A stretch of DNA of 63,337 nt, counting the filler, from Stramenopiles sp. TOSAG23-6 (lineage: Eukaryota), in the NCBI GenBank assembly GCA_900128565.1. It is 13 parts of 13 records of this genome, joined end to end, with 100 filler letters (N's around TTAATTAATTAA, not from the genome) between each part and the next. Parts side by side here need not be neighbours in the genome. Positions count along the whole stretch, not along the records: positions 6,572 to 13,040 come from LT636691.1; 12 more parts are not named here. One strand, written 5' to 3'. Shown here one piece after another: positions 1,111-45,818 of this stretch. A program made the translations under genes and the position numbers. The notes below the pieces were generated by a model, which worked only from the letters and a program-made list of their open reading frames with translations, ran no database searches and was not told the origin of the DNA. Each line of letters starts with the position of its first letter. Position 1 is the first letter of the stretch.

Positions 1111-4100
1111 TTATTGTACTACAGAGACTATAAACTGTAATGTCGAATACGGCGGAATATCTACAAAATTTGCACCACTTTTTATCCTGGATTTGCCATA
1201 GGCTGCTTTGGATGGGCAGGTAATTTTTCTTTTCCCACCAATTTTCATACACTATAAAGAAAATATTTTTTTGAAATTTTTTTGATTGTTTTTGTTAGGT
1301 ACAAAATTTACTATGAAAAAAAAAAAAAAAAAAAAATTTTTCAAAATATATTTGATATTTTGTTAGGTAAAAAATTAAATTGATGATGAAAACGAACATT
1401 CCTTGAATTCCTATATCCCATCCTTTAATCACTTCACCACGACCTAAGCGAAAACTAAATGGCTTTTTTCCAGATTTGTCAAAGATTTTTCCATTTTCTA
1501 AACGGCCCATGAATTTTTGTATCATATTTTTTAGAAAAAAAAACTGTTAGGTACAAAATTTACTATGAAAAAAAAATTGAAAAAAAAATTGAAAAAAAAA
1601 TTGAAAAAAAAAAACGCACTCATAAGAAACTTTCACTTTTTTCCTATCAATTACTAATGGTCCTTTTCCTATAATGATGTCTTCTGTCATTACACCAAGA
1701 CTCAATTTTTTAGTATTTTTAGTATTTTTAGTATTTTTTGTATTTTTAATATTTTTAATATTTTTTGTATTTTTTGTATTTTTTGTATTTTTACATTGAA
1801 CTTCAATATCATCATCAACATCAGTATTAATTTCGTATTTATCATTCATACGAGATTCCGTACCTAATAATTCTTTTTCGCGTTCCATTTTCTTTCGTTC
1901 TCTTTGACGTCGTTTTTTTTCCTGCTTTTTTTTTCGTTTCAACGAGTCAATCATTTCACCACGTATAAACATAAATCCAATTTCTTTAAGCTCATTACGA
2001 ATTGAATCTGCAGTGATCCAATCTTGAATATCTCTTGCTTTTTGTCTCAAAAGACATAAACGCTTTGCTTCCTGAAGACGAGAGTTTGTATTGTCAACAT
2101 CTACATTTGTTTTTATATTTGTTTTTATATTTATGTTTCTTGATTCTTTCTGAATGGTTGTTGTTTCTTTAGTTGTTGTATTGATATCCTCAGACACATC
2201 AAAATTGTCTTGATTATCATTGTTTGATATAATTCCCATCCAACTGGGCAATGTAGAGACTGACTTTCTTGTTGTAGTTCTATTACATGCACTGTAGCGT
2301 TGTGCGTTTTGTTTTGCTTGTAGTCTTTCCATGGGGGACATGAGCTTCACTTTTTTCCTAGACACCAAACGTCTCACTTGTTTCCTCTTGTAATTATTTT
2401 CTAAATCTTCGTTTTCTGAAAAAAAATAAATCGTACATGCTTTACGAATAGCTTCGCGTTTTTTTTCTTGTTCTTCCATATGCAATAACTCCAACTCTCG
2501 TTGCTCTTCTGCAGCACATTCACTATAAGCAAGTGCAAGGTCAAGTTCTTCAGCATATCGTTGCTTTACAGCTTCTTTTTCTTTTGCTGCTTCATGAATT
2601 AATTCTTTATGCCAATCCCATTCTTTATTTCGATTCATTATTCGTTCTTCAAGAAGTCTTTTCTCAGTTTCATGAAGACATTTTTCANGTAATGCATCGA
2701 CTTTGCGTTCCTTAAGTCTTTGCTCTTCAAGTTGTTCTAACCACACACTATGCTGTTTTTTTGCCATATCCATTCTACGTTTGCGCAATTCATTTTCATC
2801 TTCTTCTGCTTTCTTTGCAGCAATTTTCAAACGCGAAAATTCTTCAGCTAATTCTAATTCAATATCCTGTTTTCTTTTTTGTGCTTTAACATCCGCTAAA
2901 GCCCACAACTTCTCTCTATTAATTTGTGTTTGTTGAGCGTTTAAATTATGTTGGTGAATAGTGTTGAGAAGTTCCAATTCTTTTTCTCGTAGATCTTGAC
3001 GCTCTTTTTTCATCATCTTTGCATTTTGCTCTGCCTGTTTTAGTCGAATTTCGATTTGTTTTAAAGATTCCTCAGATTTCTTTTGTTGTTTCTTCATATT
3101 CGATTCATGTTGGACAATAGATTGTTTGTGTATTTCAAGTGCAATCTCTTTTTCCTTTTGCCATGCTCGTTCTTCTTCCATTAAATCAGATTCTGCAGCT
3201 GCACAATTTATCTCACCTTGACGAATGAGTTCACATTGATTATCATGCCTACGCTGTTGGTCTCTAGCTTTAAACAATTCAAGTTCTTCAAATGCTTTCT
3301 GTGTTACCTTTTTTTCACGCTCTCGCGCGATTTCTCTTTTTCGCATATTCGATTTAGCTCGTTCTTTAGATTCTTCATGAGCCCTCGCTGCTTTTATCTC
3401 CTGAAGTTTTTGCATTTCCATCCATTCCGTATGCATCTCTTCCTCCCTTTTCTTCTCTTTTTGACGGAGTTTTTCCATTTCATTGTCCCATTTCAGTAAA
3501 CGCTTCTTTTCATTATCGTGAGCAATGACACTTGAACGTTGAAAGCATTCTTCTCGCTCTAAATAATACTTCTTCATCCTCTCCCGTCTGCGTCCACGTT
3601 CAGCCTCTACATCACGTTCACGACGACGTTCGGCGAGAGCTTCTTTTTCTAACTTTTCCATTTTAGTTGCATGTGCATGTCTTTTTCTATATTTTGTAGA
3701 AATATTTCAAAAAAAATTCAATTTTTTTTTTATAAATTTGTTAGGTACAAAATGTTTTTACCAAAAAAAAAAAAAATAAATTCGAAATTGAAAAACGTAC
3801 AATGATTCTTTTCTGTCCAATGCTATTTGTTTGAGTCGTTCTTTTCGAGCTTGACGTTCTCGGTTTGCTGAACTATTATGTATTATGAAAAAATATTTTT
3901 TCCATTCAAATATCTCGTTAGATTCAAAATGCTTTACAAAAAAACAAAAAACAAATAATTTTGAAAACGTACATTTTTGTATGCGACTTCAAGTTTTTTC
4001 TTGGCTTTTTCTAATTCAATTTCTCTGATTTCTTTCCTTCTCAAAAGTTGTTCTGAAAGTTTTGCTTTCCGTTCTTTAATTATGATTTTATTTCGTTTTA

Positions 4101-5421
4101 ATTTCATTTTTTTAATTTCAGATTTGATTTCACTGTACACTACATCATTCTCATTATCATGTTTTACTTTTATTTCTTTGGATTTTGAAAATTTTGAAAT
4201 GTTTTCTTCATTCTTTACTTTTGATATATTATTAGATGTTTTCGTAACTACCACAGTTTCTAAAGGACTTCGAGGAATTGGTGTCGTTGAAAGACTCTTT
4301 TTCATTACATGGGTAGGAGATTGTATTCCATAGGAAGCTGAGGGAGGTTCATTTGATGAAGTTTTATGTTGTGTATCACTCGAACTACCATTATATCGAC
4401 GCATATCATGACAATACCAAGACACAAAATCACATTTTCTCCGCCTTTCAGGATTATGAGCAAAGAGCGATGGCATTGAAGATACGTATGGTGGAGTTTC
4501 ACACGGATTTTTCTTTGTTTTTCCTATTTTTTTTCTGTTTTGTGTCACCGGAGAGCGAGAGCGTTGACGAAGGCATTTGACCCACTCTCGTTGTTGTTTT
4601 GCAAGTTGCGGCCTTTCTGAAATATGCCGTGGACTTCGCTTTGGTGAAAGTGAACGAGATTGTATTTTACAAGGTGATCTTGGCTGGGGTGTACTACAAA
4701 CATTAGTTTCTTCACTCCAAGTACTATTCGATTTTGGATCACTCATACAATTTTCTTCAAGATGTGAAATATGAAAACTATCGCAACTTTTACTACGAAT
4801 TCTTGGATGTTTTTTTCTATTCATTAGACTACTCCTTCCACGTTGCTTTTGTCGGACAGCAGCCATTTCTCTACGGTACCAACGTCGTTTCACTTGCTCT
4901 CGACTAAGTCTATATTGTTCTTCACATTTGTTTTGATTGCTCGAAATTCGTTGGCTTGAGTTCCATTCTGGTTTAGTTGTGTTATAATGTAGATGCATAT
5001 CATCCCAAGAATACTCATCATGAAGTTTGGATATTCTTGGGGCAAATATAATACTATTACTTTGTCCGACTAAAGCTAGGGAATCTTCGTCAAAATGATG
5101 GGCGTCGGCAACAGGGTGTACATCTTGAGTTATCACCTTATTAGAGTTTGATTTATTTCCGATCTCCTGAGATGATTCTGATACTGATACTTCACTTGTA
5201 TCTTGGTTTGGTAAGGGATCCACATCGGGTGTTGTGGTAAAAGATACGTCATCGGTAGTTGCTACAAACGTGCGAAGAACTTGTGGTTCTAAATTAACAA
5301 TGTGAGTTACTTCACCTTCGCTAAAGAAATCTTCATCGACTGCGTACTTAGCTTCACTCGAGGGTGACATTTTCCCACCTATATCAGACGAATTCTTCCC
5401 AGGCACACTCTCCGGCTCCAT
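1111..5421 (-). CDS. Multi-exon gene: disordered N-terminus, long coiled coil, CysRS-C-like helix and C-terminal FKBP-type PPIase domain (may be two genes joined near 2416-2436)
   Basis: Exons 5421-3973, 3877-3801, 3686-1620, 1508-1398, 1246-1111 join in frame. FKBP motifs [49 protein letters not shown] and IPPYSTLQF are restored only after intron removal. Confidence 0.75.
1247..1397 (-). other. Intron, GT-AT, 151 nt, two branch-like motifs
   Basis: gga at|GTTCGTTTTC...TAGTGTAT|g aaa restores FKBP QGMKIGGKR; the AG 5 nt upstream gives an immediate stop. Confidence 0.85.
1509..1619 (-). other. Intron, GT-AT, 111 nt
   Basis: tat ga|GTGCGTTTT...AAATTCAT|g ggc restores FKBP SYEGRLENG. Confidence 0.85.
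3687..3800 (-). other. Intron, GT-AG, 114 nt, same family
   Basis: tca tt|GTACGTTTTT...TACAAAATATAG|a aaa aga in frame; AG sits where siblings have AT. Confidence 0.8.
3878..3972 (-). other. Intron, GT-AT, 95 nt
   Basis: aaa aat|GTACGTTTTCA...CATAATACAT|aat agt tca continues the coiled-coil frame. Confidence 0.8.
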
Positions 5422-5710
5422 TATATACTAGGGCTAATCCCTTATAATGAAGCAAACACTTGCCTTCTTATTAGATATTATGAGATTGAGAGAGATTTGA
5501 GATAAATTATATAGATAGAATCTTCGTAGATATTTTTCATATTTTTCTTTTGAATTCAGAATTTTGGAAATCTGTAGCCGCGAATTTCGAATTTATTTCG
5601 CGTTTTTGGGTTCGGTAAAATTTAGAAATTTAACGGAGGAGCAAAATTAGCATCCTTCGGATAATAATATATGTGAATCCAGAAAATTTAAATTATTTGT
5701 GGACCAAAGA

Positions 5711-6418
5711 ATGCAGCTATTTATTGCATGCACCTTTGCTGTGGCAGCATGTGGTGTATCAAGCTATACAATAAAGCAACACTTGCAAAACTACACTCAA
5801 CCAAGGTATCAAATCTATATATGTCGTATTATCATGATGGTTCCAATATATTCTGTTCAAGCACTACTGTCAATGTTGATGCCTGCTTTATCACCTTTCT
5901 TAAATACGGTGAGGGATATTTACGAAGCATACGTAATATATATGTTCTTCACTCTACTAATTGCATATCTTGGGGGTGAAGATTGTCTTATAGACTATCT
6001 GGAATTAAAGTCTTACATGCGTCATCCTTCCCCGTTTAGAAAATGTTTCGATAACATTGTTCTTGGTCGTCATTTCCTCCAGAAAGTGAAAGAAGGAACT
6101 CTTCAGTTTGTGTGCGTACGTCCAATGACTGGTCTTTTAGCTTTTTTCTTACAATGGCTTGGTCTTTACTCCAAAGAAGACTGGTCGCTCACAAATGGTC
6201 ATTTTTGGCTGAGTTTAGTGAACAATATTTCTATATCACTTTCATTGTATTCTCTTGTACTTTTCTACCGAGCAACTGAAATTCGTTTAAAGCCTTTTCG
6301 ACCGTTGTCGAAATTTATTGTCATCAAATCCGTAGTATTTTTTTCATATTGGCAAGGACTCTTGTTATCTATTCTGGTACAATGTGGTTTTATAACCGAT
6401 GACACAATCTTGGATAGT
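5711..6418 (+). CDS. TMEM184 / organic solute transporter alpha family protein, 3' partial
   Basis: HLQNYTQPRYQIYICRIIMMVPIYS, RDIYEAYVIYMFF and KFIVIKSVVFFSYWQG motifs; donor GTATGT at 6419, then contig end. Confidence 0.9.
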
Positions 6419-6471
6419 GTATGTTTTATATGAATTTCTAATTTAATTTTTTTTTTCATACGAAATTTCGT

Positions 6472-6571
6472 NNNNNNNNNNNNNNNNNNNNNNNNNNNNN
6501 NNNNNNNNNNNNNNNTTAATTAATTAANNNNNNNNNNNNNNNNNNNNNNNNNNNNNNNNNNNNNNNNNNNN
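6472..6571. other. Artificial contig linker (N...TTAATTAATTAA...N), repeated at each contig join
   Basis: Identical 100-nt spacer with stops in all frames, also at about 13041, 19607, 26170, 32729, 39282, 45819, 52355, 58891, 60003, 61115 and 62226. Confidence 0.97.
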
Positions 6572-6626
6572 AGGTACAAAATTTCGTACGAAAAAAAATT
6601 CGAATTTGAAAAAGAATAAAACATAC

Positions 6627-7243
6627 ATACGTATAAAAACTTGGAGGAGAATCACAACCAACTTTAAGCATGGCATCTCTATGAATAAAAAGTTTCTTTT
6701 CCAACGAGTTTTCATGGATTATGAAAAAATATTTCAAAATTTTCTAAAAAAAAAATTGTTAGGTACAAAATTTTTTTACCAAAAAAAAAAAATATTTACA
6801 CAAAAAATTGAAATGAAAATTGTTAGGTACAAAATTTACTATGAAAAAAAAATAAATTCAAAATTGAAATGAAAACGTATAGCAATGTCTAAACCAATTA
6901 AGGAATTTAATGTGGAACATGTTCCTTCTTTTTTGTTGAAGCTTCGACGCGCGAAAGATTTTTTGGATGGATTATTTATTTCTACATCAAGTAAGGAATC
7001 AAATGCGGAACATTGTACGTCATAAGCAAATTTAGGTGTATCGAAGCTATCTCTAAGGGGATAAAAAGGTCTCAATGCGGAAACGGAAGAAAATTGAGAG
7101 TTACATTGAAAGTCAAATGTTGCCCTATGTACCGGTGTGTTCGGGCTCGATAATCCGTTACAAGGACTAGGGGAAAATATTTGAGCCTCCAAAGAGAAAA
7201 GAGGGCGAGTTATCGAAAGCGGCTCAATTTTCACTTCTTCCAT
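6627..7243 (-). CDS. Hypothetical protein, 3' partial (exons 7243-6881, 6713-6627)
   Basis: Two ORFs joined in frame by a family intron; next donor GTATGT at 6626. Confidence 0.55.
6714..6880 (-). other. Intron, AT-AT, 167 nt, duplicated branch core
   Basis: att gct|ATACGTTTTCA...TTCATAATCCAT|gaa aac tcg in frame. Confidence 0.7.
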
Positions 7244-7472
7244 CTTCTGTTGCTTTTTAAAAATTCTACAAGAATTCAGTGAAATATACTGAATAATATG
7301 GCGACACTTTGCTTAGCTCAAACATTCTTTGGATGTTTTTTTTGTAGGCTGAAATTCTTTTCGATACAAAAAAGTTTTATTATAAGACCAATCAAACATT
7401 TTTCCTACTTTACCTTCACAAGAATTCGATAACAGAAAGATAAAACCGCCGGCGGTTATATCATCAGCTGCC

Positions 7473-7486
7473 TAGGGTTAGGGTTT
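7473..7486. promoter_or_regulatory. Telo-box-like element in a divergent promoter
   Basis: TAGGGTTAGGGTTT between divergent genes. Confidence 0.45.
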
Positions 7487-7632
7487 CATCCCACGGTTAC
7501 AAATTACCATCTCAAATCTTTACGTACATAAATTTTATACTGGTCATTTCAAGTAATCGGATATCCAGTTTTAGCTATAATACTACATAATATCCTACTA
7601 CATTTTCTTTGATTACGTTTCTCCCAGGGGAA

Positions 7633-9455
7633 ATGAAATCTCGGGAAAATGAGGACGAGCTCCGCTTCTCTTTAGGAGAGAAATTATCTAGTCTTTTTCT
7701 TCCAGTTTCTCAGAAGCCACACACTTACCAGCAACAATATATGGACAAAGAAATGAGAAAAAAAAATGTTCACAATAGAATAAGAAATAGTTCTGAAGAA
7801 AATATGCCCACTATGTCTGGGAAAATGATGTATAAACAATTGAGTAGGGATGTTGAATATATTAGTCCTATCCAATCTATCAAACCAAAATATCAAATAG
7901 AAAAAAATAATGCTACAGAGACACTTTCTCAACCAATATTACATGATTCGCATGGTAGTGTCGAATTAACGACTAGCTCTACAACTGAAACAAAAGATGA
8001 GAATAATATGACTGAAACAAAATATGAAAATACTACAATCATGAATAATGAAGCTCAGAACCTTAAATCTTCAGAATGTATACATAAAGATGAGATACAA
8101 CGCCATTTACCTCCTAGACAAAAAAATGAAAAACTTATACGCAGTAGTACACACGAAAAAATGAAATTGAAGAAATATTCAGATTTATCTTTACAGTTTC
8201 AAAATTTAAATTCTCGTGTACACAATATTACTCTTGGATCTCCTTTAGCTGGTTGGGATGTCGTGGGAGATACAATTGAGGAGTATAATAATTGGAATGA
8301 TTTACCATATGTAGGAATTGGTGAACAACTATCAAGTATATATATGCAGAATATTACTCCTAACCCTAACCCTAATAAAGAATCAGAGACTGTACAAATG
8401 AGTAAAGATGTACATAAAAAAAATAAAAAAAAATACACTACAAATAATAATAAAAGTAAAGCCAAATTTAAAAGAAGTCTTAACCCTAACAATAAAACTA
8501 AACCAAAATGCACAAGAAAAATTAAAAGAAATATTAAAACAAAACCAAAAATTAAAAGAGACACTGTCAAGAAGAACAAAAGAACAAATTTTAGAACAAA
8601 ATATAAACCGATTTTACATCCAAATAATACACGAATAGAGAAAAAAAGTCAAATAAGTCATACACATAACTCGAATGATACAAATCCACAGAATAAATGT
8701 ATTACAATAAAAAATAACCCTAACACTGACATTGAAACGATAAATTCTAACAGAAGATCTAATATGACAAAAGTAGACATTGACATGTCTGCATCACCAT
8801 CGTCAAGACTAAGAGCAATATCAAAGAGAAAAGAAACATCACCTAGATTTAGTGGTGGTGGGGTCCGACCTTCAGCAGTTCACAAATGGGGATCTCATTC
8901 AGGTACACAAAAAGAAACAGTGAATATGTACGTTTTCATGATGAATTTAATTTTTTTGTTTTAAATTTTCGTACGAAATTCCGTGCCTAACAATTTTTTT
9001 TCTAAAATATTTTTTCACAATACATTTCGAATAGATTGAATATAAAAGAAAGATCAGTGCAAACAGCTAGAGGTCGAATTCGTTTTCATTCAGAAAATTC
9101 AAACATAGCAGGAATATCCGGTATAAAATCTCTGAGAAAAAGAAAGGCAAAAAAAGTAGAAATAGTAAAAAAGAGACCTCAAAGTGCTGTAGCTGTATTA
9201 TCAAATAATGCATCGAAAAATGATGCCAAACATCATTCTGATAGAAAAAGAGTAGCCATGTCCAAAAGATTAGATGAATCAATTTCAAGATGGAAAGAAA
9301 GATATATAAGAAGAAGACAAAACGATGGAAAAAGCACGAGTACAACTCCAGATTTTTCGAAAAATGTAGAAAATACGAAACGCGTACCAGTATCGAATCA
9401 TTTTATTGGATTTTCAGTGTTTTCAATTTCAGATCGACAAAAAAACAACCGTTAA
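7633..9455 (+). CDS. Lys/Asn-rich low-complexity hypothetical protein, 2 exons
   Basis: ORFs 7609-8964 and 9036-9455 joined in frame by intron 8928-9025. Confidence 0.6.
8928..9025 (+). other. Intron, GT-AT, 98 nt (an in-frame AG 9 nt downstream is an alternative)
   Basis: aat at|GTACGTTTTCA...CACAATACAT|t tcg. Confidence 0.7.
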
Positions 9456-9564
9456 AAACGACCGTTTGATAATATTTATTGATAACAAAGCACTCAAATT
9501 TCATTGACACAATCAATATTCATCAGAAATACAATAAAACACTCACTGAGTTAAAATGTCGTTT

Positions 9565-10293
9565 CTAGGGACCCATTTTTACCGGTTTCTCTACCTTTCT
9601 GTCCCCTCTTGTTTTTACTATACAATCGCTCATTTTGTATTCGTCTTTTTTACCATCATAGTGCAAACAAACCTCAATTTTATTAACATGATTTTCGTTT
9701 TTGAAAGATACATCAACAACCTCGGGAAATATGTCACATATATCTCCAAGTGTTTTTGCTTTAGAGAGCTTTTCATCCAAGCTAGGTATTTTGCGATGAA
9801 TAATCCATCGTACAAATAGTGCTTCCTTAAAATACTCATTTTGGTGATCAACGCAAGGCATACATTTCTTTCCACCATATGTTTTCCATTCATACTCCCA
9901 TCTATCCTCAGTTTGAGAAAGAGTAGATCCTTCGACTTTCCAATACTTGTCCATCTCTGTTCTAAGCTCTAAATGAATGTCCTCAATATCATATGATAAA
10001 GATGAATCTTTACATGTAAACCCATTTTTCCTATAACTACGAATGACTGTTCTTTTGCGAACTGGATCCCAAATAAAAACCATCTTATAATCACCGTTAG
10101 AATGACCTGCACAAAAATGTCGTTCAAGACCATCAGAACCTATCGATTTCATAGTTATAGCAAGTTCAAAAACAAGCGTAACCACAAGTACTACAAGTAC
10201 CACATTAATTACAACTTTCGCGTGTTGCCAAGATTTCTTACTGGATTCCTCGTCGGAGGTTCCTAGAAGTGGTTGCTCTGCTTCACTTTTCAT
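9565..10293 (-). CDS. RNase T2-like type II membrane protein, probably catalytically inactive
   Basis: N-terminal TM helix; LRTEMDKYW, RWEYEWKTYG, QNEYFKEAL and KIEVCL follow the RNase T2 pattern. Confidence 0.6.
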   Translation of the reverse strand: MKSEAEQPLLGTSDEESSKKSWQHAKVVINVVLVVLVVTLVFELAITMKSIGSDGLERHFCAGHSNGDYKMVFIWDPVRKRTVIRSYRKNGFTCKDSSLSYDIEDIHLELRTEMDKYWKVEGSTLSQTEDRWEYEWKTYGGKKCMPCVDHQNEYFKEALFVRWIIHRKIPSLDEKLSKAKTLGDICDIFPEVVDVSFKNENHVNKIEVCLHYDGKKDEYKMSDCIVKTRGDRKVEKPVKMGP

Positions 10294-10417
10294 AATTTTT
10301 CAGTTGTTTCTAAACATACTTTTCTTCTCTGTTGATTTCAGATTGCATTGATACCGTTATAATAATTTCAAATTTAACCGATTTAACAATAATAACGCAC
10401 AAATATTCCAAAAAAGA

Positions 10418-10431
10418 AAACCCTAACCCTA
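10418..10431. promoter_or_regulatory. Telo-box-like element in a divergent promoter
   Basis: AAACCCTAACCCTA between divergent genes. Confidence 0.45.
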
Positions 10432-10586
10432 CGTAACTGTAAATTTTGCGCGACACTACGACTGAAAAAGAGATTTAGTCAGAAACAATTTTGAAATTGT
10501 ATACACTTATAAAATATCTTGCGGAATCAGGATGTTTTTCAAATCGAAGCAGTACGACACTAGATAGCATTTTAATTTTCTCTAAA

Positions 10587-12300
10587 ATGTGGGCTGCATT
10601 TGCTTGCCCTAAAGAAGCTGACCCGTCTTCACGCTTTCGTAAGTGCCGTAATAAAAAGCATTCTCGAATAGAGCGAAAGCGAACAGCACAACAAATAGCT
10701 ATGGAGCATCAAGTATTAACTGAACAAAACGCCATTATTCAAGAAATTGGTCGCGATACTCGAGCAAATTGGGATTATAGACACGCTGGTGATGCTGGAA
10801 TTAGAGGAAAGAAAACGAAAATACGTTTTCGTGCCTGGGGTGAGTTTGAAGCTGCCACTAAAAGATTGCAACGCGCCAACTCTAGTCTTGGCAAGGATTT
10901 CACTGGCCCCGACCCTGGGACATATCATATCCAACAATTCCCTGGTCCACATCCTTGTTCAAATGTAAAGTTTCAAAAATATCCAGGTATCTGTAAGGAA
11001 CGTCGAATGTGTAGTTTAAATTCAGAAATTGGTCAAAAAAGCAAACAGCTTTTGTATACCTATGGTGGTACCGTACAAGATTTTACTCCAGGACCAAATC
11101 AAGCTCCTAAAAAATCATCGATAGGTCATCAAGTCCTATCTACATATAAAAATGCGCCAAGGATATGCTGTCGAGGAAAACCTAAAACTGAAAAATCAAG
11201 TGCCGAATATAGTGAAAGTAATTTCAAATGTTCTCCTTCATCATTATTTGGTCAGCAACTTTTATCAGACTTTCCATCCGCTGGAAGATATACATTTGGG
11301 ATGTTACGTGGAAATGGGGCTTTAGATGTTCGGTCTGATATGTTACAGGTTCCACATACATATGCAAAACATATGACGGATGAAAATGTGAAAAATAGAG
11401 TCGTAGATAAATTGTACGATCCGGATGAACATGTACGTTTTTCATCAACCCTAACCCTAATCAAACCTAACTCTACTTTCAAATTTTAATTTTTTTTTTT
11501 TTGCGAAATTGTGTCATGAATTTCANNNNNNNNNNNNNNNNNNNNNNNNNNNNNNNNNNNNAAATGTATTGTTCAAATGTATTGTTCAAATTTGCTTTCA
11601 TTCGTAATAAAAAAAAACATTTCAATTATTTTCAATAATACTCACAAATTCCAAATTGTATTCATATTTTTTCACAATTCATGGAATAGGCGGTCACGTA
11701 TGTTTTTCTATTTTTTACCAATTTCGAATTTTTTTTTTTATACGGAATGTTGTACCTAACGTTTTTTTTTTTTGAAAAAAATATTTTTTCACTGCACATG
11801 CTTTTTCCATGTCAAAAGAAACAAGACATATGAATAAAGTTATTAATCCAAGATATATTGACGATGCAGCTGTTGGATCGTATAACCTCAGTATTTCTAT
11901 GGGGTATGTTTTCAACTTTTCATTTCAATTTTTTACCTACATTTATTTTTTCATAGGAAATTTTAATACCAAACGTCTTTTTTTCTTTTTTTGTAATATT
12001 TTTTTACATTACGAAAGCCAGGCAGAGAGTCACAAGGCAAATGCTCCTCAATACTCATTATCAAAACAAAAACGTCCGATGAATAATAGTAAAGCAAATA
12101 TGACATCTGGTCCTGGACCTTTAAAATATTCTCCAAATTACAAATCGGTATTGCCAAACAAAAGAATACCAAAATTAGCTTCTAGACCACATAGGCCACC
12201 AATTGGTCACAAGAATTTGTATGAAATGAAACAATACAAATCTAGAAGTGTATCTGATATTCATTTTCTTCAGAATAGATTAACAGGGTATATAAAGTGA
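10587..12300 (+). CDS. SHIPPO-repeat (ODF3-like) flagellar protein, multi-exon, spans a scaffold gap
   Basis: PGP/PGxY repeats and GxQxxS motifs; donor at 11433, 15-nt microexon 11683-11697, introns 11698-11799 and 11904-12014. Confidence 0.6.
11698..11799 (+). other. Intron, GT-AT, 102 nt
   Basis: ggt cac|GTATGTTTTT...TCACTGCACAT|gct ttt tcc atg in frame. Confidence 0.75.
11904..12014 (+). other. Intron, probably GT-GA, 111 nt (an in-frame AG 3 nt downstream is possible)
   Basis: atg gg|GTATGTTTTCA...TACATTACGA|a agc cag gives SMGSQAES, matching the protein's GxQxxS repeat. Confidence 0.5.
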
Positions 12301-12433
12301 TATAAAGTAGTTGTTTGAAAAGGTATGCATTTCTAAGTTTTGAAAAAATAATTTATTTTGTAAAACTTTCAATTTTTTAACGTATGTAAAAATAAGAATC
12401 ATTTTGAAATGTTTGACATTGTTCTTTTTATTT

Positions 12434-13040
12434 TTAAAACTTAATCAACTTACACGTGCCATCCGCTCCACAAGAGTACAACCCTTCAATAGAAAAGTAA
12501 ATATCCGACACACCTGCTTGCCGTAGCATACCAGTTCCAGCAGTAGTATTGTATAACTCAGTTCGCGTTCCATGAATTTTTTCGAGACTTGATTGTAAGA
12601 TGAGAGATTTCATTTGTACATGACTTTTTTTCTCTCGGTTTGACTTTCCGTTTTGATTTCCAATAGACCAAAGTTTAATTGTACCGTCTGATGAAGCTGA
12701 TGCAAAAGTATTGTTTAAAGGATCTGATGCAAGCACAGTGATAGAATGTGAATGTGTATTTGGAGTGACACTGAGAAGTTTTCTTTGACGAAGATCAAAT
12801 AATGCAATATCACCCTTATCCCCACCTGAAACTAAAATATTTTGATTAGGCAAATGTAATATTGACTTTGCACCTCCAGCATGAGCTGCAACTCCTGCCA
12901 AGCCAACACACTCAGCTATTAAACATTCCCTAGGAGGCAGTAATGTATCCCACATACAAACAGTTGAACGATATTTTCCATGTCCAGCAGTAGCAATAAT
13001 AGAACCTCTTCCATTCATAAAACACATGTCTTGTGAAAAA
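12434..13040 (-). CDS. WD40 repeat C-terminus, DMXL/Rav1 (rabconnectin-3 alpha)-like, 5' partial
   Basis: VCMWDTLLPP, LVSGGDKGDIALFDLRQRK, SASSDGTIKLW and LYSCGADG motifs. Confidence 0.75.
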
Positions 13041-13253
13041 NNNNNNNNNNNNNNNNNNNNNNNNNNNNNNNNNNNNNNNNNNNNTTAATTAATTAANNNN
13101 NNNNNNNNNNNNNNNNNNNNNNNNNNNNNNNNNNNNNNNNGAAAGAATTCAAAAAATGTAACAATAAAAAATCTAAATCCTCATATATAGATAATTCGGA
13201 AGTGAATCTTCATTGAAGTTTCTGTATTCCCTGAGTAATTTATACTCAGTACA

Positions 13254-16247: not shown

Positions 16248-16368
16248 ACATTGTAGACATTGACGACAAAAGATTGGATTATGAAATGTTTGTAGTATAT
16301 TATTATTTATTAGGTAATACGTTTAAATTATAAAATGTAGATTAATTACGACAATCAATTTAACTGAA

Positions 16369-18515: not shown

Positions 18516-19037
18516 CTTTTTCTATGAAGTGTCCTTAACTTTTATACTCAGCTTTACCGAGTATGTGGTGTAAATAAGTTATACACAAATTATACGAAAC
18601 AAACTTCGAGTGAGAGTGTTGTAGACACTAGATATAGTCTCTATTGTAAAAACCAAATCGTTGAAGTAGTTTGGTACTACTAGTTACAACAGCCGCTTTT
18701 TTTCTATTTTTTTACGCTGAAACACAAGTGATAGTGACACGTGGCATTTTTAGTAGTCGGACAGGTTTGCGCGCAGAAAAAGTGCTTAAAAAAAAACAAA
18801 AAATTAAATTCATTTGTATTTGTATATCTCACCATAAAAATAGACAACATTATTAATATTCAAAAAATATTCAAGTATTTAATCCATTTTTTTCTACTTT
18901 TTTATTTTTTTTTATTTTTTAGAATATTTTTTCTAATAAAAATATTGAAATATTGAAATATTCAATCATTTTTTTCGACTTTTTTCTTCTTATTATTATT
19001 AGGTACTAAAATGGTAAAAAAAAAATTCAAATACATT

Positions 19038-19537
19038 TTAATCCATTTTTTTTCGATTTTTCTTCTTATTATTAAAAGTTCTCCTTAAATTTTTCTTCCT
19101 ATTATGTTTTGGTGAATACCTCTTTGACTTTGATATAAGTTTTGGATCAAGACAGGTTGTATTTTGGAAAATATTTCAAAAAAAAAATCGTTAGGTACAA
19201 AATTTACTATGAAAAAAAATAAATTCAAAATTGAAAAAAAAATAAACATACTTCCTGTTGTCGCAACAACGAGAGGATTTGTATTTGGCAAAAATCGGTT
19301 TGGTGGGATATCTGACTCATCATCAGCTTTTCCACTGGATATTTGACCATATACTCTCATATTTTCTATAATCGAATGCGACAAAAACAACGATACCAAA
19401 AAGCAAAATAATGGGAACATTTTCATTGATGGGTGTAAAGTAATCGGACGAATACTTGAAGGATCATTATATGTATATACAATGAGATATTCTAGTGCAA
19501 CTAGACCATGGACGACCCAATCCCACCGAAGCCAATC
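19038..19537 (-). CDS. Membrane protein fragment, 5' partial, 2 exons
   Basis: Hydrophobic segments; acceptor AATACAT at 19538. Confidence 0.5.
19157..19251 (-). other. Intron, GT-AA, 95 nt
   Basis: gga a|GTATGTTTA...TCCAAAATACAA|cc tgt; end placed by motif spacing and the frame stays open. Confidence 0.6.
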
Positions 19538-19706
19538 ATGTATTTTAAAACAATATTTCAAAAAAAATCTAAAAAAAATTGTTAGGTACAAAATTTACTA
19601 TAAAAANNNNNNNNNNNNNNNNNNNNNNNNNNNNNNNNNNNNNNNNNNNNTTAATTAATTAANNNNNNNNNNNNNNNNNNNNNNNNNNNNNNNNNNNNNN
19701 NNNNNN

Positions 19707-24435: not shown

Positions 24436-26092
24436 ATGACTTTGCATACGGATGTAGAGATGTCCTCTCTCAAACATCGGCGTGTGGATTTCCAGGAACA
24501 AAAAAAGAATCCAGATACAAGCTTGTTTGTAAAAGAAGTCCGAAGCCCTGCAAGTTTTGTGACTCCACATAACAACAAGAGTAGGAAAAATGGACTTTCT
24601 AAACAATTCTCATACAAAGAAGATACACCGAAACCTCAAAGTCGTATTGAAAAATTCCGTCAACATATAATTGGACCCAAAACAATGTCCTGGTCGGATA
24701 TCGTCACTACAATTCTATCCGCTTTCATTGTTTGTATGATCGCACACACGTTCAATTGTGTAAAGGGTGTTTTAATATTTGGAGATTATAAAAGCACTGA
24801 AGAGTTTGTACCATTAGCTGTAACAATTTATCATGGTACTTCCTTTATTACCGGACTGGCTGTTGTTCTCTATTCAGATTGTCCTATTGGAATTGGTGGC
24901 CCAAATATTAAACATGCTTTTCTTTTTGCTTCACTAATCGTTAAAAACATTGTAAAGGATGTTGTTGGTCACGTAAGTCCCACCGCCGGAGCACATCGTC
25001 GTCTTAGTGGATGTTTTATTTTTTTTCAAATTCGAAATATTGTTTCGTACGAAATTTTTTTTGTACCTAACAAATTTTAGTTTTTTTTTTTAAATATTTT
25101 TCCAAAATATATGAATATGTCTCGTTAGATGTTGACACTGAAGAAAAATTAATATCGACCTTGCTCGGGGCAATTCTTTTTACAAATTTGTTGTTTGGAG
25201 TAATTTGGTACATCCTTGGAAATTATAAGCTCACGAGGGTTGTACAATATATCCCATCTTTTGTGATTTCCGGTTTTATTTCATCTCTAGGGTATTTGAT
25301 CATTATTAAAGCTATCTTTATGTCAACTGAAAAGCACATTTCTTTTCAAATTGGAAGCATGCATGTGCGTCCTCTTATTGAACTAAAATTTTGGAGTTTA
25401 CTTTTACCTGCAATTGTACTAGGAATATTCATGTGGTATGTGAAACATAAGCACATTGGTAAACCGTTGTATACTATGCCTTTAATGATGTACGTTTTTA
25501 TTATGAATTTTTAATTTTTTTTTCATACGAAATTTTGTACCTAACATTTTTTTTGACAAACAAAAAACAAAAAAAAATATTTTTTCACATTAAATGGGTC
25601 TTCCTGTTCTCGCATGTTTTGTTACAATATATGCTCGAGGTTCGTCGATCGACACTGCCAGAAATGTATGTTTTATTTTTTTTTCAATTTCGATTTTTTT
25701 TTTCGTACGAAATTTTGTACCTAACAAAAATTAAGTTTTTTTTTTTTAAATATTTTTCCAAAATACATGGTGATTGGTTTTTTGATGAATTTGAAAAAGG
25801 AACATTTTATCACATTTGGTCAAAATTTAATCTAAAAAAAGTGAATATAATGGCAATATTAAAAATTTCAGGAAATGCATTCATCATAATACTTATTTTA
25901 AGTATCGATGTACGTTTTCATCATGAATTTATTAATTTAGTTTTTTTTTTCATACGAAATTTCGTACTTAACGATATTTTTCATGATTTCGTGTTTTTTT
26001 CACAATACATGTCTTATTGAAGCTTGTCGCATTAAGGAGAGAGTTTGAATTACAAGATATGGACTTTGATAAAGAAATGAGATTGAATGGAT
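24436..26092 (+). CDS. SLC26/SulP family anion transporter, 3' partial, at least 5 introns
   Basis: IGGPN, LTRVVQYIPSFVISGFISSLG and DMDFDKEMRLNG motifs; exons 24436-25008, 25113-25489, 25596-25665, 25769-25909, 26011-26092. Confidence 0.85.
25009..25112 (+). other. Intron, GG-AT (or GT-AT at 25007-25110), 104 nt
   Basis: agt|GGATGTTTTA...CCAAAATATAT|gaa tat gtc in frame. Confidence 0.7.
25490..25595 (+). other. Intron, GT-AT, 106 nt
   Basis: atg at|GTACGTTTTT...CACATTAAAT|g ggt ctt continues a TM helix. Confidence 0.8.
25666..25768 (+). other. Intron, GT-AT, 103 nt
   Basis: aga aat|GTATGTTTTA...CCAAAATACAT|ggt gat tgg. Confidence 0.85.
25910..26010 (+). other. Intron, GT-AT, 101 nt
   Basis: atc gat|GTACGTTTTCA...CACAATACAT|gtc tta restores SIDVLLKL...DMDFDKEMRLNG. 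Confidence 0.85.
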
Positions 26093-26744: not shown

Positions 26745-28541
26745 ATGTTTATTCGTATATCTATATTGATCTTACTACTTACAAAATCTACAATTGGACT
26801 ACAAAGGTCAACACCAAAGTCTCTCGTGAATGATGATACATGGAACCTGTCACGTGAACTTCGGAGTCTATCAAGTACACGCCTTATGTCCGTCCTCCAC
26901 CGTGCTGGATATTTGAATGTGAATTTGGGACAACTTTATAGTGCAAGTACTCCAAGTGATGAAAAACACAGTCAAAGTCCTCAAATAGTACAGGAAACAC
27001 ATGCTGCACATTCATGTGAAACTGTGACATTAATAACAAATAATCCAACCGATCTAGTGGGTGCTGCAGAAACTATTTCAAAATCTTTCATTGAAGTTGA
27101 CGCGAGTTCTGGACTCAATTCATTATCAAGTAAACTTGGACAACGTAATGGTATTGGTATGCATGATTCTGTAAAAGGAAAGGACGAAATTAAAAAGACA
27201 AAAAAGAAACTCAGTTGTAATTGCGACTCCTATGTACAAAAAAATCATGAATTTCAAAAAAAAATATTTCGTAGTAAATTTTGTACCTAACGGTTTTTTA
27301 TTATTTTTGGTAAAAAAAAAAAAATATTTTTTCACAATAGATAAATGTCAATGTAGAAAACAGTGCTTTTGTAAACTTCAAAGTGACGCCTTTGGTGGTA
27401 CTCAAGTATCAGCAAAAAACACAAAAAATGGATCAGGACAAGCTGGTGGAGCTGGTAATCCTGATCATCAATTTAAGTGCACTTGTTCATTTGAAGGAAT
27501 TGGGGGATACGTTTTCATTATGAGTTTCAAATTTATTTTTTTTTTCGTACGAAATTTTGTACCTAACATGTTTTATTCTACAATAAAAAAAAAATATTTC
27601 TCACAATATTTTGGTGGAATTACCGCAGGTGGGACAATGGACTGCGACTGTAAAATTGCGGATTGTACGTTTTCATTATGAATTTCGATTTTTTTTTTTT
27701 TTTTTGGTTTTTTATAAAAATTTTGTACCTAACCGATTTCGAATTTAATTTTTTTTTTACAATACATGTGCTTGTGAAAAACAATGTTTGTGTCGCCCAG
27801 AAAACGAATTACAGACAACAAGTGAAGATGGAATTTGTGATATTAAAGAAATGAAAACACCAGAAGATTGCTTGAAAGCAAGTCCTCCTGGAAATGTACT
27901 TTTTTATTATGAATTTCGATTTTTTTTTTTTTTTTTTTTTTGGTTTTTGGTTTTCATACGAAATTTTGTACCTAACTAATTTTGAATATTTTTTAAATAT
28001 TTTTTTACAATATATTGGACTCCTGCGACATGTTCAATCCCTGGAATTACTACAAGAGAAGAGTGTGAAAATGCAAAACCGATAAAAGGAAAATGTACGT
28101 GACAATCAGTTTTATTTTTGTTTTTTTTTAATGAAAAAATCCATACCTAACAATCCTGTTTTTTTCGGACAATCAAAAATATTTTTTCACAATATTTGGG
28201 AACCAGAACCACCCAAGGGTATCTGTACAATAAAAAAATTACCACACAATGCGGTTGATTGTAAAGCAGCGGAACCACCAGGGGTATGGTATAAAGATCA
28301 ACACATTTGTGATATACGCCCGCCATTGACTGAAGAAAAATGTGATAAAGTTATTCCAAAAGCGACATGGAAGAGTTATGAGACGTTTCGTTTTGAAACA
28401 CAAAAAAAAAAATCTCCAAAAAATGAAAATCACAATTTTTTTGATGAGAATACTTTTAATAATTCAAATGTAGATGACATCATTGACCCCATTGGTCTTG
28501 ATAAGGATGACGAAACTCTTCATTTTATGGGACTTGGGTGA
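26745..28541 (+). CDS. Secreted Cys-rich repeat protein, 6 exons
   Basis: Signal peptide; repeated CxC...CxCxKQCxC and C...C...PPG.W units restored by 5 introns. Confidence 0.75.
27234..27342 (+). other. Intron, GT-AT, 109 nt, ending AATAGAT with an AG bypassed
   Basis: tcc tat|GTACAAAA...CACAATAGAT|aaa tgt caa tgt gives CNCDSYKCQC. Confidence 0.7.
27507..27611 (+). other. Intron, AT-TT, 105 nt
   Basis: ggg gg|ATACGTTTTCA...CACAATATTT|t ggt gga gives GIGGGGITAGG; full internal motifs present. Confidence 0.65.
27665..27767 (+). other. Intron, GT-AT, 103 nt
   Basis: gat t|GTACGTTTTCA...TACAATACAT|gt gct tgt gives DCACEKQCLC. Confidence 0.85.
27896..28015 (+). other. Intron, GT-AT, 120 nt
   Basis: gga aat|GTACTTTTT...TACAATATAT|tgg act gives PPGNW. 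Confidence 0.8.
28095..28197 (+). other. Intron, GT-TT, 103 nt
   Basis: aaa t|GTACGTGA...CACAATATTT|gg gaa creates the repeat's conserved Trp (GKW, compare GNW and GVW). Confidence 0.75.
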
Positions 28542-39281: not shown

Positions 39282-39435
39282 NNNNNNNNNNNNNNNNNNN
39301 NNNNNNNNNNNNNNNNNNNNNNNNNTTAATTAATTAANNNNNNNNNNNNNNNNNNNNNNNNNNNNNNNNNNNNNNNNNNNNTGTACCTAACAAATTTTAG
39401 TTTTTTTTTTTTTGAAATATTTTTCCAAAATACAT

Positions 39436-39894: not shown

Positions 39895-41743
39895 CTATTC
39901 TTCTTGATATTCCAATTTTTCTTTTTTGCATTTTTTTTTTAATGTAGTCATCAGTGGGTATACTAAAAGAAATATACATGTATTTTGGAAAAATATTTCA
40001 AAAGAAAAATGTTAGGTACAAAATTTCGTATGAAAAACAAATTCGATTTTTTTTTTTTCGGTAAAAAAAAAAAAATAAAACATACATACGACAAAGAATG
40101 ATCCGAATGTAACAAGAGTTAATTTTTTATAAATTCCTATTGTTGTTTTGTCTTGAAATGGCGATGTCGATGACGTCAGCATAAAAGAAAGAAAAGATTG
40201 AACAATTAATGATAAAATATTCATCATTACAAAAACCGAAGCAAAAATGCGTTTTTTTGAAGTTTTTGCTGCTTCTGTGACATAGATAGCATTACAATAT
40301 TGCCATGCGCAAACCTGTACTGTAGAAAATATTTTTAAAAATTAGTATTTGTTTTCTTTGGTATTTTGTTAGAAACAAAATTTTCTTTGTAAAAAGAAAA
40401 TGAAATTCAAAATGAAAATGAAAATGAAAATCAAAACGTACATAAATTGTAAAACTAAACAAGCTCAATAGGAAATTGGTATTTTTGAAGATTGATTTAT
40501 CATCATTCTCAATATTATGTCCCTCTTCCAGTGCTATGCAGCGTGTAGCAAACATAACTATAGCCAGTAGACTTATTGATACCATGTATTGTGAAAAAAT
40601 ATTTCAAAAAAAATCGTTTTTTGCTTAGGTACAAAATTTCGTACGAAAAAAAATGTAGGTAAAAATTGAAATGGTGAAAACGTATACTATTAATGATAAA
40701 ACTACACTACAATGAATAAAACTAAGTTGCTTTAATATACTATTTCCAGATTCCCCAAATTTTGAATTATTTTGATATTTCTCAATATATCCTGGAACCA
40801 ATGATGCCAAACAACCTAGTAGTAATGGAATTGACAAAAACGTCCCATTAAAATCAGCTGATTTTGTTGAATGAGAAAGTGAACTCGATCTATCAGTTAA
40901 ATCTTTATATAACTGCGGTTCATATCCATTCACTATTTGATACACTGCATTGAAAAGAACCCAGAGAATAGTAAATATCATGAAACGAGGTTGTAATGAG
41001 AGCGAAAACGTAGCTTGCAAGGCCGAATACTTTTTACTAATAGTTGTAAAACAGCTCATAAAAAATGTTTTCTTTCCATCTTCCACAAAATGTTCACACG
41101 GTGCTGTATCGTCCGATATTCCGTCATAGCGTACTTCTATTACTGGAGTAAAATAGCATAGACTAATGATACCTGCAATTGAAACACTTGTAAAAGATAT
41201 CCAAAATAATATGCGAATAGAAGCACCCAAGACGTGCAACGCAAAGTCACTAAATAATCCACTAAGAAAGTGTGCCAACAAATACGATGCTTGAACCCGG
41301 GAAGTAAGCGTTTGATAATCACTTTCATTGCATACACAGTGATAAATATACGCAAAAAATATAACTTCTCCGACAGAACCTACCGCATAAGTTACCTGCA
41401 TGAGTTGCATCTGCCACAGAGTATTCCCAAAGAGAAGAATAATTCGAGTTAGTATTCTCCCTAACACTCCCAAATATATTATAGGGGTATACCTCAAATA
41501 TTCTGACACCCCACCGAATAATAGTAAAGAAACAAAATAAGCATATGTCCAAATAGGGTATACACTATCATTTACTTCTGATTTTGATAAACCAACTTCA
41601 TCTATAAGATATGCACTCAGATGTGGCTCTGATGGTTTGAATGAAAGAAATATTATAAAGGAACATAATTGCAGTGATGACTTGAAAAGCGTACGACTAG
41701 GTTTTACTGTCGATACATCAGGTGCTAGAAGAATCTCGTCCAT
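39895..41743 (-). CDS. Reduced folate / thiamine carrier (SLC19) family transporter, 4 exons
   Basis: FKPSEPHL, VYPIWTYAY, EYLRYTPII and MQLMQVTY motifs; introns 40584-40685, 40315-40441, 39978-40085. Confidence 0.9.
39978..40085 (-). other. Intron, GT-AT, 108 nt
   Basis: gta t|GTATGTTTTA...CCAAAATACAT|gt ata ttt completes the last TM helix. Confidence 0.75.
40315..40441 (-). other. Intron, GT-AG, 127 nt, same family
   Basis: att tat|GTACGTTTTG...TACAGTACAG|gtt tgc; shifting the register by -1 or -2 makes TAG. Confidence 0.8.
40584..40685 (-). other. Intron, AT-AT (or GT-AC if shifted 2 nt), 102 nt
   Basis: ata gt|ATACGTTTTCA...CACAATACAT|g gta tca. Confidence 0.75.
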
Positions 41744-43654: not shown

Positions 43655-45818
43655 TATGCTTATTTTGTTTCTTTACTATTATTCGGTGGGGTGTCAGAAT
43701 ATTTGAGGTATACCCCTATAATATATTTGGGAGTGTTAGGGAGAATACTAACTCGAATTATTCTTCTCTTTGGGAATACTCTGTGGCAGATGCAACTCAT
43801 GCAGGTAACTTATGCGGTAGGTTCTGTCGGAGAAGTTATATTTTTTGCGTATATTTATCACTGTGTATGCAATGAAAGTGATTATCAAACGCTTACTTCC
43901 CGGGTTCAAGCATCGTATTTGTTGGCACACTTTCTTAGTGGATTATTTAGTGACTTTGCGTTGCACGTCTTGGGTGCTTCTATTCGCATATTATTTTGGA
44001 TATCTTTTACAAGTGTTTCAATTGCAGGTATCATTAGTCTATGCTATTTTACTCCAGTAATAGAAGTACGCTATGACGGAATATCGGACGATACAGCACC
44101 GTGTGAACATTTTGTGGAAGATGGAAAGAAAACATTTTTTATGAGCTGTTTTACAACTATTAGTAAAAAGTATTCGGCCTTGCAAGCTACGTTTTCGCTC
44201 TCATTACAACCTCGTTTCATGATATTTACTATTCTCTGGGTTCTTTTCAATGCAGTGTATCAAATAGTGAATGGATATGAACCGCAGTTATATAAAGATT
44301 TAACTGATAGATCGAGTTCACTTTCTCATTCAACAAAATCAGCTGATTTTAATGGGACGTTTTTGTCAATTCCATTACTACTAGGTTGTTTGGCATCATT
44401 GGTTCCAGGATATATTGAGAAATATCAAAATAATTCAAAATTTGGGGAATCTGGAAATAGTATATTAAAGCAACTTAGTTTTATTCATTGTAGTGTAGTT
44501 TTATCATTAATAGTATACGTTTTCACCATTTCAATTTTTACCTACATTTTTTTTCGTACGAAATTTTGTACCTAAGCAAAAAACGATTTTTTTTGAAATA
44601 TTTTTTCACAATACATGGTATCAATAAGTCTACTGGCTATAGTTATGTTTGCTACACGCTGCATAGCACTGGAAGAGGGACATAATATTGAGAATGATGA
44701 TAAATCAATCTTCAAAAATACCAATTTCCTATTGAGCTTGTTTAGTTTTACAATTTATGTACGTTTTGATTTTCATTTTCATTTTCATTTTGAATTTCAT
44801 TTTCTTTTTACAAAGAAAATTTTGTTTCTAACAAAATACCAAAGAAAACAAATACTAATTTTTAAAAATATTTTCTACAGTACAGGTTTGCGCATGGCAA
44901 TATTGTAATGCTATCTATGTCACAGAAGCAGCAAAAACTTCAAAAAAACGCATTTTTGCTTCGGTTTTTGTAATGATGAATATTTTATCATTAATTGTTC
45001 AATCTTTTCTTTCTTTTATGCTGACGTCATCGACATCGCCATTTCAAGACAAAACAACAATAGGAATTTATAAAAAATTAACTCTTGTTACATTCGGATC
45101 ATTCTTTGTCGTATGTATGTTTTATTTTTTTTTTTTTACCGAAAAAAAAAAAATCGAATTTGTTTTTCATACGAAATTTTGTACCTAACATTTTTCTTTT
45201 GAAATATTTTTCCAAAATACATGTATATTTCTTTTAGTATACCCACTGATGACTACATTAAAAAAAAAATGCAAAAAAGAAAAATTGGAATATCAAGAAG
45301 AATAGAAAGATTAAAAAATATGTAATTTTTCAAAAATGTACTACCAAAAATAATGAAATGTATGATGAAAATAATAAACAAAAGAGTTCAAATGACATGT
45401 TTTTCTTTATTTTCAATGTAAACATTTTTCTAATAATTCAGATATCGTCATAGCGTTTAATTCAGTTGCTGTATATGTATTGCGAAAAAATACTTTACAA
45501 TCAGTTTTTTTGTTAGGTACAAAATTTACTACAAAAAAAAAATTACATTCAATTTTGAAAACATACATAATAGATCAGTTCCATTTTTATGTTTTAATTT
45601 AACATTGTCAATACAATGCAAAATAATGCTATCCTTTACAGTCGATTTTTCTAATTTTTCATCATCAAATTGCTTTTGTAGTGAATTATTTTCTTTTTGT
45701 AAATCTTTTTTAGACTTTTTCAATTTATCAATTTCATCTTGTTGAGATGAAATCGTTTGTTGTAATGTATTTTGGAAAAATATTTCAAAAAAAAAAAAAC
45801 TAAAATTTGTTAGGTACA
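43655..45818 (+). repeat. Inverted duplicate of 39382-41545, carrying a 5'-truncated SLC19 copy at 43655-45305
   Basis: Positions map as p to 85200-p; identical ORFs appear on opposite strands. Confidence 0.95.

Follow-up and report, generated by a model that had tools for sequence, protein, structure and literature searches.

To our knowledge, GT..AG termini, or rarely AT..AC, are near-universal among spliceosomal introns. In the major spliceosome the first and last intron G interact, a pairing of terminal bases that probably takes part in catalysis. Two kinds of described intron are the nearest points of comparison here. Introner elements, known from Micromonas, Aureococcus, dinoflagellates and other mostly aquatic eukaryotes, are transposon-derived and appear as near-identical short introns at unrelated positions in unrelated genes. 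U12-type introns, in the excerpts of the literature considered here, have 5' sites of the form [G/A]TATCCTT (in Physarum also [AG]TATCTTT), and their non-canonical terminal pairs are mostly AT-AG, AT-AA, GT-AT and AT-AT; splicing of AT-AN and GT-AT pairs by the U12-type machinery has been demonstrated, and ~20,900 U12-type introns were gained in Physarum, possibly via a transposon. Here we describe a family of introns running mostly from GT to AT in a 63,337-base stretch of DNA (hereafter the window) from Stramenopiles sp. TOSAG23-6 (GenBank assembly GCA_900128565.1). Four of its members, among them the intron at 6714..6880 on the minus strand, begin with AT or GG. We put at about one in two the probability that these relaxed donors are ordinary family members, of which at least two (those starting at 6880 and 40685) are still removed at the family borders, with cut sites set by sequence motifs.

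An alignment of 24 introns, together with searches for branch-block and 5'-motif copies, defines one stereotyped family with the 5' motif GTAYGTTTT, the branch block TTGTACCTAAC and the 3' block CAMAATACAT. Its members share a layout in which exon AT|GTAYGTTTT is followed by a T-rich spacer (variable in length, with several subtypes), the block TTTCGTACGAAATTTTGTACCTAAC and a 3' block ..TTTTTYCAMAATACAT|G exon. The 3' block, ..AAATATTTTTYCAMAATACAT, lies 31–54 nucleotides (nt) past the branch A, the following exon mostly begins with G, and the introns are ~92–176 nt long. As RNA, the signals read AUGUAYGUUUU at the 5' end and UACCUAAC in the branch region. The motif RTACGTTTTCA matches the window 10 times against 0.14 expected (at least 10 in 0 of 100 shuffles), and a gapped 5'-to-branch pattern matches 12 times against 0.00. 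The first base of RTACGTTTTCA is G in six copies and A in four (6880-, 27507+, 40685-, 44515+).

Termini were read from a curated set of 28 unique complete introns, whose 3' ends were set by alignment of the 3' block before frame testing. The set leaves out copies in two duplicated regions, introns cut by a contig end or a run of N (starts at 6626, 6421, 26093, 32864 and 11433), 3' halves near 26283, 19589, 39383 and 59014, and copies whose ends could not be placed (11904, 20067/20143, 43645, 52182/58718, 59155, 61905 and 61739). GT-AT termini occur in 20 of the 28, GT-AG in two, AT-AT in two, and GT-AA, GG-AT, AT-TT and GT-TT in one each. At the 5' end, +1 (the first intron base) is G in 25 introns and A in three, +2 is T in 27 and G in one, +3 is A in 25, +4 is C in 19 and T in eight, +5 is G in 26, +6 is T in 27 and +9 is T in 23. 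At the 3' end, -1 (the last intron base) is T in 25, G in two and A in one; -2 is A in 26, -5 is T in 27, and -7 and -9 are each A in 27. Deviation rates are thus 3/28 at +1, 3/28 at +3, 2/28 at +5 and 5/28 at +9. Position +1 deviates as often as other motif positions, and G1 therefore shows no extra constraint; conservation of the terminal letters does not exceed that of the positions beside them. Two minus-strand introns, 3687-3800 and 40315-40441, end in AG (..AAAATATAG and ..ACAGTACAG) exactly where the others end in AT; for the latter, the alignment with homologues is ungapped at the 40441 junction.

The family shares several signals with major (U2-type) introns. GT opens 24 of the 28 introns within a GTATGT-like motif, and the branch block, found with three or fewer mismatches in all 28, is followed by a T-rich block, giving the branch sequence and pyrimidine-rich stretch of that class. 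The 5' GTAYGT and the branch block TACCTAAC are close to yeast-type major-spliceosome signals. The 3' AG of major-type introns is absent from most members, which end in AT in 23 cases and in AG in two. The three A1 introns resemble U2-type AT-AC introns in having A at +1 of an otherwise major-type 5' motif; however, AT-AC introns pair A1 with a terminal C, whereas here A1 occurs with T-1 in 3/3. An AT..AC reading of the whole family was also considered and rejected: it requires an exon ending in AT (17/28), which excludes the others, and is out of frame for the three A1 introns. Published accounts of the introns of Fritillaria and other tunicates, euglenids, hemistasiid diplonemids and Amoebophrya describe, in the excerpts considered, either no conserved terminal pair or base pairing that joins the ends. 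The present family differs in its fixed GT..AT consensus and strong 5' and branch motifs, and RNAalifold on the 24 aligned introns returned 0 conserved pairs and no end-joining structure; these are therefore not hairpin-bounded non-conventional introns.

The GT..AT borders are real, as reading frames, an FKBP domain, a cysteine-rich gene and frame-shifting internal AGs together indicate. A frame test, which scored whether the longest upstream and downstream open reading frames (ORFs) agree with the family borders, agrees in 22/28 introns (p = 1.2e-6, with 1/3 expected by chance); short exons are involved in the six misses, among them the FKBP intron and 27507 (introns are named here by their first base where no range is given). 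The reference GT..AT intron, 1247..1397 (-), has borders fixed by the FKBP_C profile, which covers positions 17-54 on exon 1400-1507 and 56-93 on exon 1114-1245, the split codon AT|G (Met) supplying position 55. This confirms the non-AG 3' border to the exact residue. An AG 5 nt upstream of the 3' end of the FKBP intron would shift the frame and is skipped. In the cysteine-rich gene a repeated Cys module ends in a conserved Trp, which joining across intron 28095 (TT end) restores as T|..|GG; at intron 27896 the module Trp directly follows the cut. Across the family, an AG lies between the branch A and the family 3' end in 10/28 introns; 8 of 11 such AGs shift the frame and three are in frame, about the chance share. 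AG is not the acceptor signal of this family.

Within this family, the first-pass annotation had singled out introns that begin with AT at 6880, 27507 and 40685 and with GG at 25009. All four starts are confirmed: ATACGTTTTCA stands at 6880..6870 (-), 27507..27517 (+) and 40685..40675 (-), and GGATGTTTT at 25009 (+). A fourth AT copy, which that annotation had not listed, begins at 44515 (+). It is the duplicate of 40685 (44515..44616, +) within an inverted duplication, hence the same locus and not independent, leaving three independent AT starts plus one GG start. The contig concerned, 39382-45818, has a perfect terminal inverted duplication of 2164 bases (39382-41545 paired with 43655-45818), probably an amplification or an assembly chimera, which doubles the folate-carrier gene described below and its introns.

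The AT..AT intron at 6714..6880 (-) is 167 nt long and contains an internal duplication with two branch blocks. It starts with ATACGTTTTCA (6870..6880), bearing A at +1 where the family has G, and ends with CATAATCCAT. One copy of TTGTACCTAAC lies at 6822..6832 and a second, nearest the 3' end, at 6758..6768, with 45 nt from its branch A to the intron end; the family 3' block, ending ..TTCATAATCCAT, occupies 6714..6737. On the minus strand the order is therefore exon ..GACATTGCT | ATACGTTTTCA .. TTCATAATCCAT | GAAAAC.. exon. The upstream exon spans 121 codons from its first ATG (6881..7243, -) and belongs to no known family; the downstream exon has 29 codons (6627..6713, -) and is followed by a family intron that starts at 6626 and is cut by the contig end. 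The host protein had 0 Pfam matches and 0 homologues in a protein search.

Reading frame and coding signal both favour the family borders of this intron. The borders fall in phase 0, with 144 open codons upstream and 47 downstream. Exon 1 has a coding score of +32.8 bits versus -52 and -111 in the other frames, and exon 2 scores +14.2 bits at offset 0 (26 codons, 6636-6713) versus -0.15 and -25.6, true-frame windows of that size averaging 9.4 bits (standard deviation 4.6). Phase 0 upstream and offset 0 downstream match the AT..AT borders. Retention would bring a stop after 13 codons, and the GTs at -14 and +4 from the donor are out of frame. A model in which the exon ends in AT and the GT has been deleted was rejected, as it moves exon 2 into the offset-1 frame (-0.15 versus +14.2 bits).

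The second AT..AT intron, 40584..40685 (-), is 102 nt long and interrupts a reduced-folate-carrier gene. Its family borders fall in phase 2, with 370 open codons upstream and 96 downstream, and retention would bring a stop after 20 codons. Spliced at family borders, the gene is open for 503 amino acids, and homologues cross the junctions at residues 352.7 and 400 (P0045, 8-416 to 24-446; P0047, 9-335 to 25-417), the alignment including a conserved W.F.NA.FY.ET stretch downstream. A tblastn search with the homologues on the unspliced contig gave only weak matches downstream, and the homology becomes visible after conceptual splicing. The deletion model that was rejected for 6880 is out of frame here as well. 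The ORF is 92% identical to a EukProt coding sequence (CDS) with a label starting GSMAST32, on which basis the organism is probably a marine stramenopile of MAST type.

The AT..TT intron at 27507..27611 (+) is 105 nt long and lies in a gene for a secreted cysteine-rich protein with five family introns, which is open for 418 amino acids from the signal-peptide Met to the stop. Its borders are in phase 2, with 110 open codons upstream and 22 downstream, and it fails the crude longest-ORF test solely because a longer spurious frame exists. The gene product had 0 matches among 1.84 billion representatives. The GG..AT intron at 25009..25112 (+), which starts with GGATGTTTT, is 104 nt long and interrupts a sulfate-permease-like gene in phase 0, with 193 open codons upstream and 133 downstream.

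Compared as a group, the relaxed donors look like ordinary members of one family without a terminal G, as had been proposed (GT..AT in 20/28, last base T in 25/28). The alignment bears out the earlier observation that internal motifs are kept, with the branch block and the 3' block present in all four. Codons are open on both sides of all four family borders, so the claim that the frame is kept stands; at 27507, however, the intron is stop-free and the open frame is no sign of removal. A GT two bases upstream is present at 25009 and 40685 and absent at 6880 and 27507, as first described. The proposal that positions +3 to +9 carry donor recognition fared less well. It is compatible with 0 mismatches there in 4/4 relaxed donors, but it is not required, since the GT introns 27234 and 28095, both verified by frame, deviate at these positions by 5 and 3 mismatches. 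A perfect +3 to +9 occurs in 4/4 relaxed donors versus 15/24 GT donors, a difference that is not significant (Fisher ~0.19, an estimate). Mean block mismatches are 1.75 in relaxed donors versus 3.2 in GT donors. The three A1 changes stand on different subfamily backgrounds in the alignment and so arose independently. A1 occurs with T-1 in all three, and the curated table carries no covariation signal.

We therefore have real AT starts, and the explanation we prefer for them is that the four introns are working members of the family. Each of the AT copies (6880, 27507, 40685) and the GG copy (25009) would have suffered one substitution, at +1 or +2. The introns at 6880 and 40685, at least, would be removed at the family-aligned borders by a spliceosome whose cut sites are fixed jointly by three signals (extended 5' motif, branch block, 3' block). 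Terminal letters would then be no more critical than their neighbours, and A at +1 would be tolerated, a tolerance that may follow from U instead of G at the last intron position. The first-pass annotation had likewise suggested that loss of the terminal G freed G1, which is plausible and fits both A1 with T-1 in 3/3 and the lack of extra conservation at +1. Part of the motif conservation may stem not from selection but from a mobile element that was copied recently. From the collinearity of the proteins (folate carrier, FKBP, cysteine-rich gene) we infer removal of the family introns from mRNA, and we infer further that the A1 and G2 introns are spliced, exact sites included. A bolder version, which we think less likely than not, holds that the second splicing step has been rewired: introns would end in U, the first base could be A and the last U, G or A, and extended motifs would replace the interaction of first and last bases, in a family that spread as an introner and whose 3' AT is a duplicated insertion target.

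Read-contigs from public sequencing runs (three metatranscriptomes and one metagenome) were placed on 6572-13040, and the 15 joints (of 121) and 32 pieces (of 5661) with most support were considered. Every joint among the matches listed falls in the repeat-rich stretch 6591-6860, and these joints resemble cross-matches to other copies of the family. In the protein libraries, the spliced form of the three host genes was not found (0 matches for 6880 and for 27507; for the folate carrier, only an unspliced CDS). Productive splicing from an AT donor is therefore a proposition drawn from genomic sequence.

Several observations weigh against the reading we prefer. In the metatranscriptome runs depth is zero over 7004-7435, with no RNA contig covering the 6880 host gene, and within those best 15 of 121 joints and 32 of 5661 pieces neither 6714/6880 nor another family intron is spanned by a contig. 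There are only three independent A1 cases, and the terminal dinucleotide counts are not fully independent of the decision to place 3' ends by alignment. An exonic AT precedes the donor in 0/4 relaxed donors versus 17/24 GT donors (Fisher p = 0.016, post hoc), and if that AT aids recognition, the four relaxed donors are doubly weak sites. The chimeric duplication means that the assembly is not error-free. At 27507 the length is a multiple of three with no in-frame stop, so the frame is kept either way; removal is not demonstrated and retention is possible. At 25009 both borders can be moved 2 nt upstream, owing to ATAT at the 3' end, to give an in-frame GT..AT intron, and this case is ambiguous. 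At 40685 the GT at -2 is usable, only with a TG or AC end. At 6880 a GC 3 nt upstream (6883) is in frame, a point that the first-pass annotation had not raised, and an AG 14 nt past the branch A (6744..6745, -; coordinates derived from a 30-nt extension) is an alternative acceptor, in frame and stop-free, that adds 10 codons scoring -3.1 bits. Finally, the public annotated CDS (protein P0036) nearest the gene at 40625-41797 (-) runs through the 40685 intron to its own stop. P0036 is probably a mis-model forced by canonical splice rules; it also drops a 29-amino-acid stretch that is a continuous ORF in 40625-41797 (-).

These points feed two rival explanations of the relaxed donors. The A1 and G2 copies could be crippled, carrying recent G-to-A mutations or alleles private to the cell or the assembly, and unproductive in host genes that are impaired, dispensable or, at 27507, tolerant of retention. 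In the major spliceosome a G1-to-A change blocks the second step, which counts for this explanation, as do the missing exonic AT, the chimeric assembly, the lack of RNA contig cover over the 6880 gene, the lack of any homologue of the 6880 and 27507 genes in searches, and the 27507 intron itself, stop-free over 105 nt with both ends deviating. We nevertheless regard it as unlikely. Three dead introns among 28, in genes that otherwise look intact, would be many; coding signal and homology persist in the exons beyond 6880 and 40685; retention would truncate both proteins; and the relaxed donors are otherwise nearer the consensus than average, with three changes on different subfamily backgrounds. 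Somewhat less likely again is splicing at other borders from a G-starting donor, namely the GT at -2 of 25009 and 40685 and the GC at -3 of 6880, perhaps with the AG acceptor. A GT sits exactly 2 nt upstream in 2/4 cases, the co-shifted 25009 intron remains GT..AT and in frame, and at 6880 the GC is in frame and the AG is in frame and open. Such borders would, however, break the register of a +3 to +9 motif that is perfect in all four, and AG goes unused as an acceptor across the family. The 40685 GT does not keep the frame with the family 3' end and so needs a non-family end anyway, 6880 has only the GC, and upstream of 27507 the closest GT or GC donor is at -22 or beyond, the sole in-frame one being at -30.

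A third possibility concerns mechanism and is compatible with the explanation we prefer: a transformed minor, U12-type-like spliceosome, for which A or G at +1 and AT, AA, AG or TT ends would be native tolerances. The published 5' sites, terminal pairs and Physarum gain outlined at the start speak for it, within the excerpts considered, and that known tolerance of A/G at +1 and of AT ends, which the first-pass annotation had not mentioned, makes A1 here less unprecedented. U12-type introns and the family have in common A or G at +1, GT-AT and AT-AT pairs, and long rigid 5' and branch motifs, and the Physarum mass gain with transposon-like ends is a further likeness, as far as those excerpts go. 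Family RTAYGTTTT matches U12-type motifs at +1 to +4 and +7 to +9, and ACCTAAC resembles the U12-type branch sequence TCCTTAAC. Against this, family positions +5 and +6 are GT (G in 26/28, T in 27/28), not the CC or CT of U12-type sites, and GTATGT with TACTAAC-like signals fits the yeast-type U2 consensus equally well. The branch A and the 3' end are 31–54 nt apart, a gap far wider than the short one usual in U12-type introns, the family has a conserved 3' block unlike theirs, and a search of the whole window with Rfam at the gathering threshold gave 0 matches, so that small nuclear RNAs, the minor ones included, were not found in it. We consider this mechanism improbable, more so than either rival above.

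The origin of the family fits an introner-like spliceosomal element. Similar introns at non-homologous sites are present as 28 unique complete copies plus truncated ones in ~50 kb of unique sequence, much as introners are near-identical short introns in unrelated positions and genes. Contigs also break inside family introns, and in seawater runs k-mer depth over introns exceeds that of flanking exons by factors of hundreds to thousands. A direct repeat spans the borders (exon AT in 17/28, intron end AT in 23/28; AT|G..AT|G, with the spliced junction reading AT|G in 11/28 of the curated table). According to the excerpts seen, a published introner may bring one splice site of its own, the other being supplied by a target duplication. 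The exonic AT matches the intron-final AT here, and family intron ends read GTA..TAC. The intron end is near-constant, however, so that an AT repeat is indistinguishable from splice-site consensus and neither terminal inverted repeats nor a target-site duplication is established; that the 3' AT is a duplicated target site is speculation. Introners as described in the same excerpts run GY..AG with rare GC or GA donors only, whereas this family ends in AT and may begin with A; a transposase and an empty site were also not seen.

Contig ends lie inside family introns at 6471, 6572, 19606, 26169, 26270, 32829, 39382, 45818, 58991 and 60002, as expected if the assembler breaks at a high-copy repeat. 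Over the intron bins 6572-7003, 8948-9163 and 11540-11971, summed k-mer depth ranges from tens to ~20,000 in seawater DNA and RNA runs, with exons in single digits; intron-bin depth reaches ~1,800-19,600 in seawater runs versus single digits for neighbouring exons, and depth is not copy number. Intron sequence is abundant in RNA libraries too, where unspliced RNA, stable introns and DNA carry-over are indistinguishable. A 16-mer scan of viral contigs returned 28 loci and a gapped-pattern scan of metagenome contigs 33 loci, all of the latter chance matches; neither contained a family member. At 11683-11697 (+), 15 nt (GGAATAGGCGGTCAC) separate one family 3' block from the GTATGT of the next intron and may be a micro-exon. 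A degenerate copy at 52182 and 58718 (-) starts with TCACGTTTTCA and adjoins a second remnant. No clear ORF on its strand contains this copy, so family copies also occur outside coding exons.

The window consists of 13 contigs ordered by size, from 6471 bases down to 6436 and then four of ~1012. The contigs are joined by linkers of the form N44-TTAATTAATTAA-N44 (6472-6571, 13041-13140 and ten others), across which distances are meaningless. The contigs at 45919-52354 and 52455-58890 are near-identical, with the same ORFs and the same ends. GC content is ~31% overall and ~26-41% per 2 kb, and long ORFs stay open under the standard code. An ORF of the Ostalpha family has alveolate and other protist sequences as its nearest named relatives, at 44-64% identity. 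Parts of the stretch were found in seawater metagenomes and metatranscriptomes of several studies. Telomere-like (CCCTAA)2 runs number 13 matches versus 0 expected (at 1041, 8364, 11449, 48690, 49109, 59165 and 61855-62028). Several follow directly 3' of a GTACGTTT-type intron start (11433, 59155), and the run at 8364 lies inside an ORF stretch reading PNPNPN.

Full-text literature searches, covering neither subscription journals nor supplements, did not find a GT..AT intron class. In a term search of genome papers on marine stramenopiles (MAST), 'intron' occurred only in the methods text of one, and 'intron' and 'splicing' were absent from the others. Gene models that insist on GT..AG would be wrong for such genomes, the folate-carrier CDS that reads through an AT intron being an example. 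If true, a free-living protist of global distribution whose standard intron ends in AT would put the GT..AG rule to a natural test. Tolerance of A at +1 without a terminal C, if true, would reveal what fixes the cut sites.

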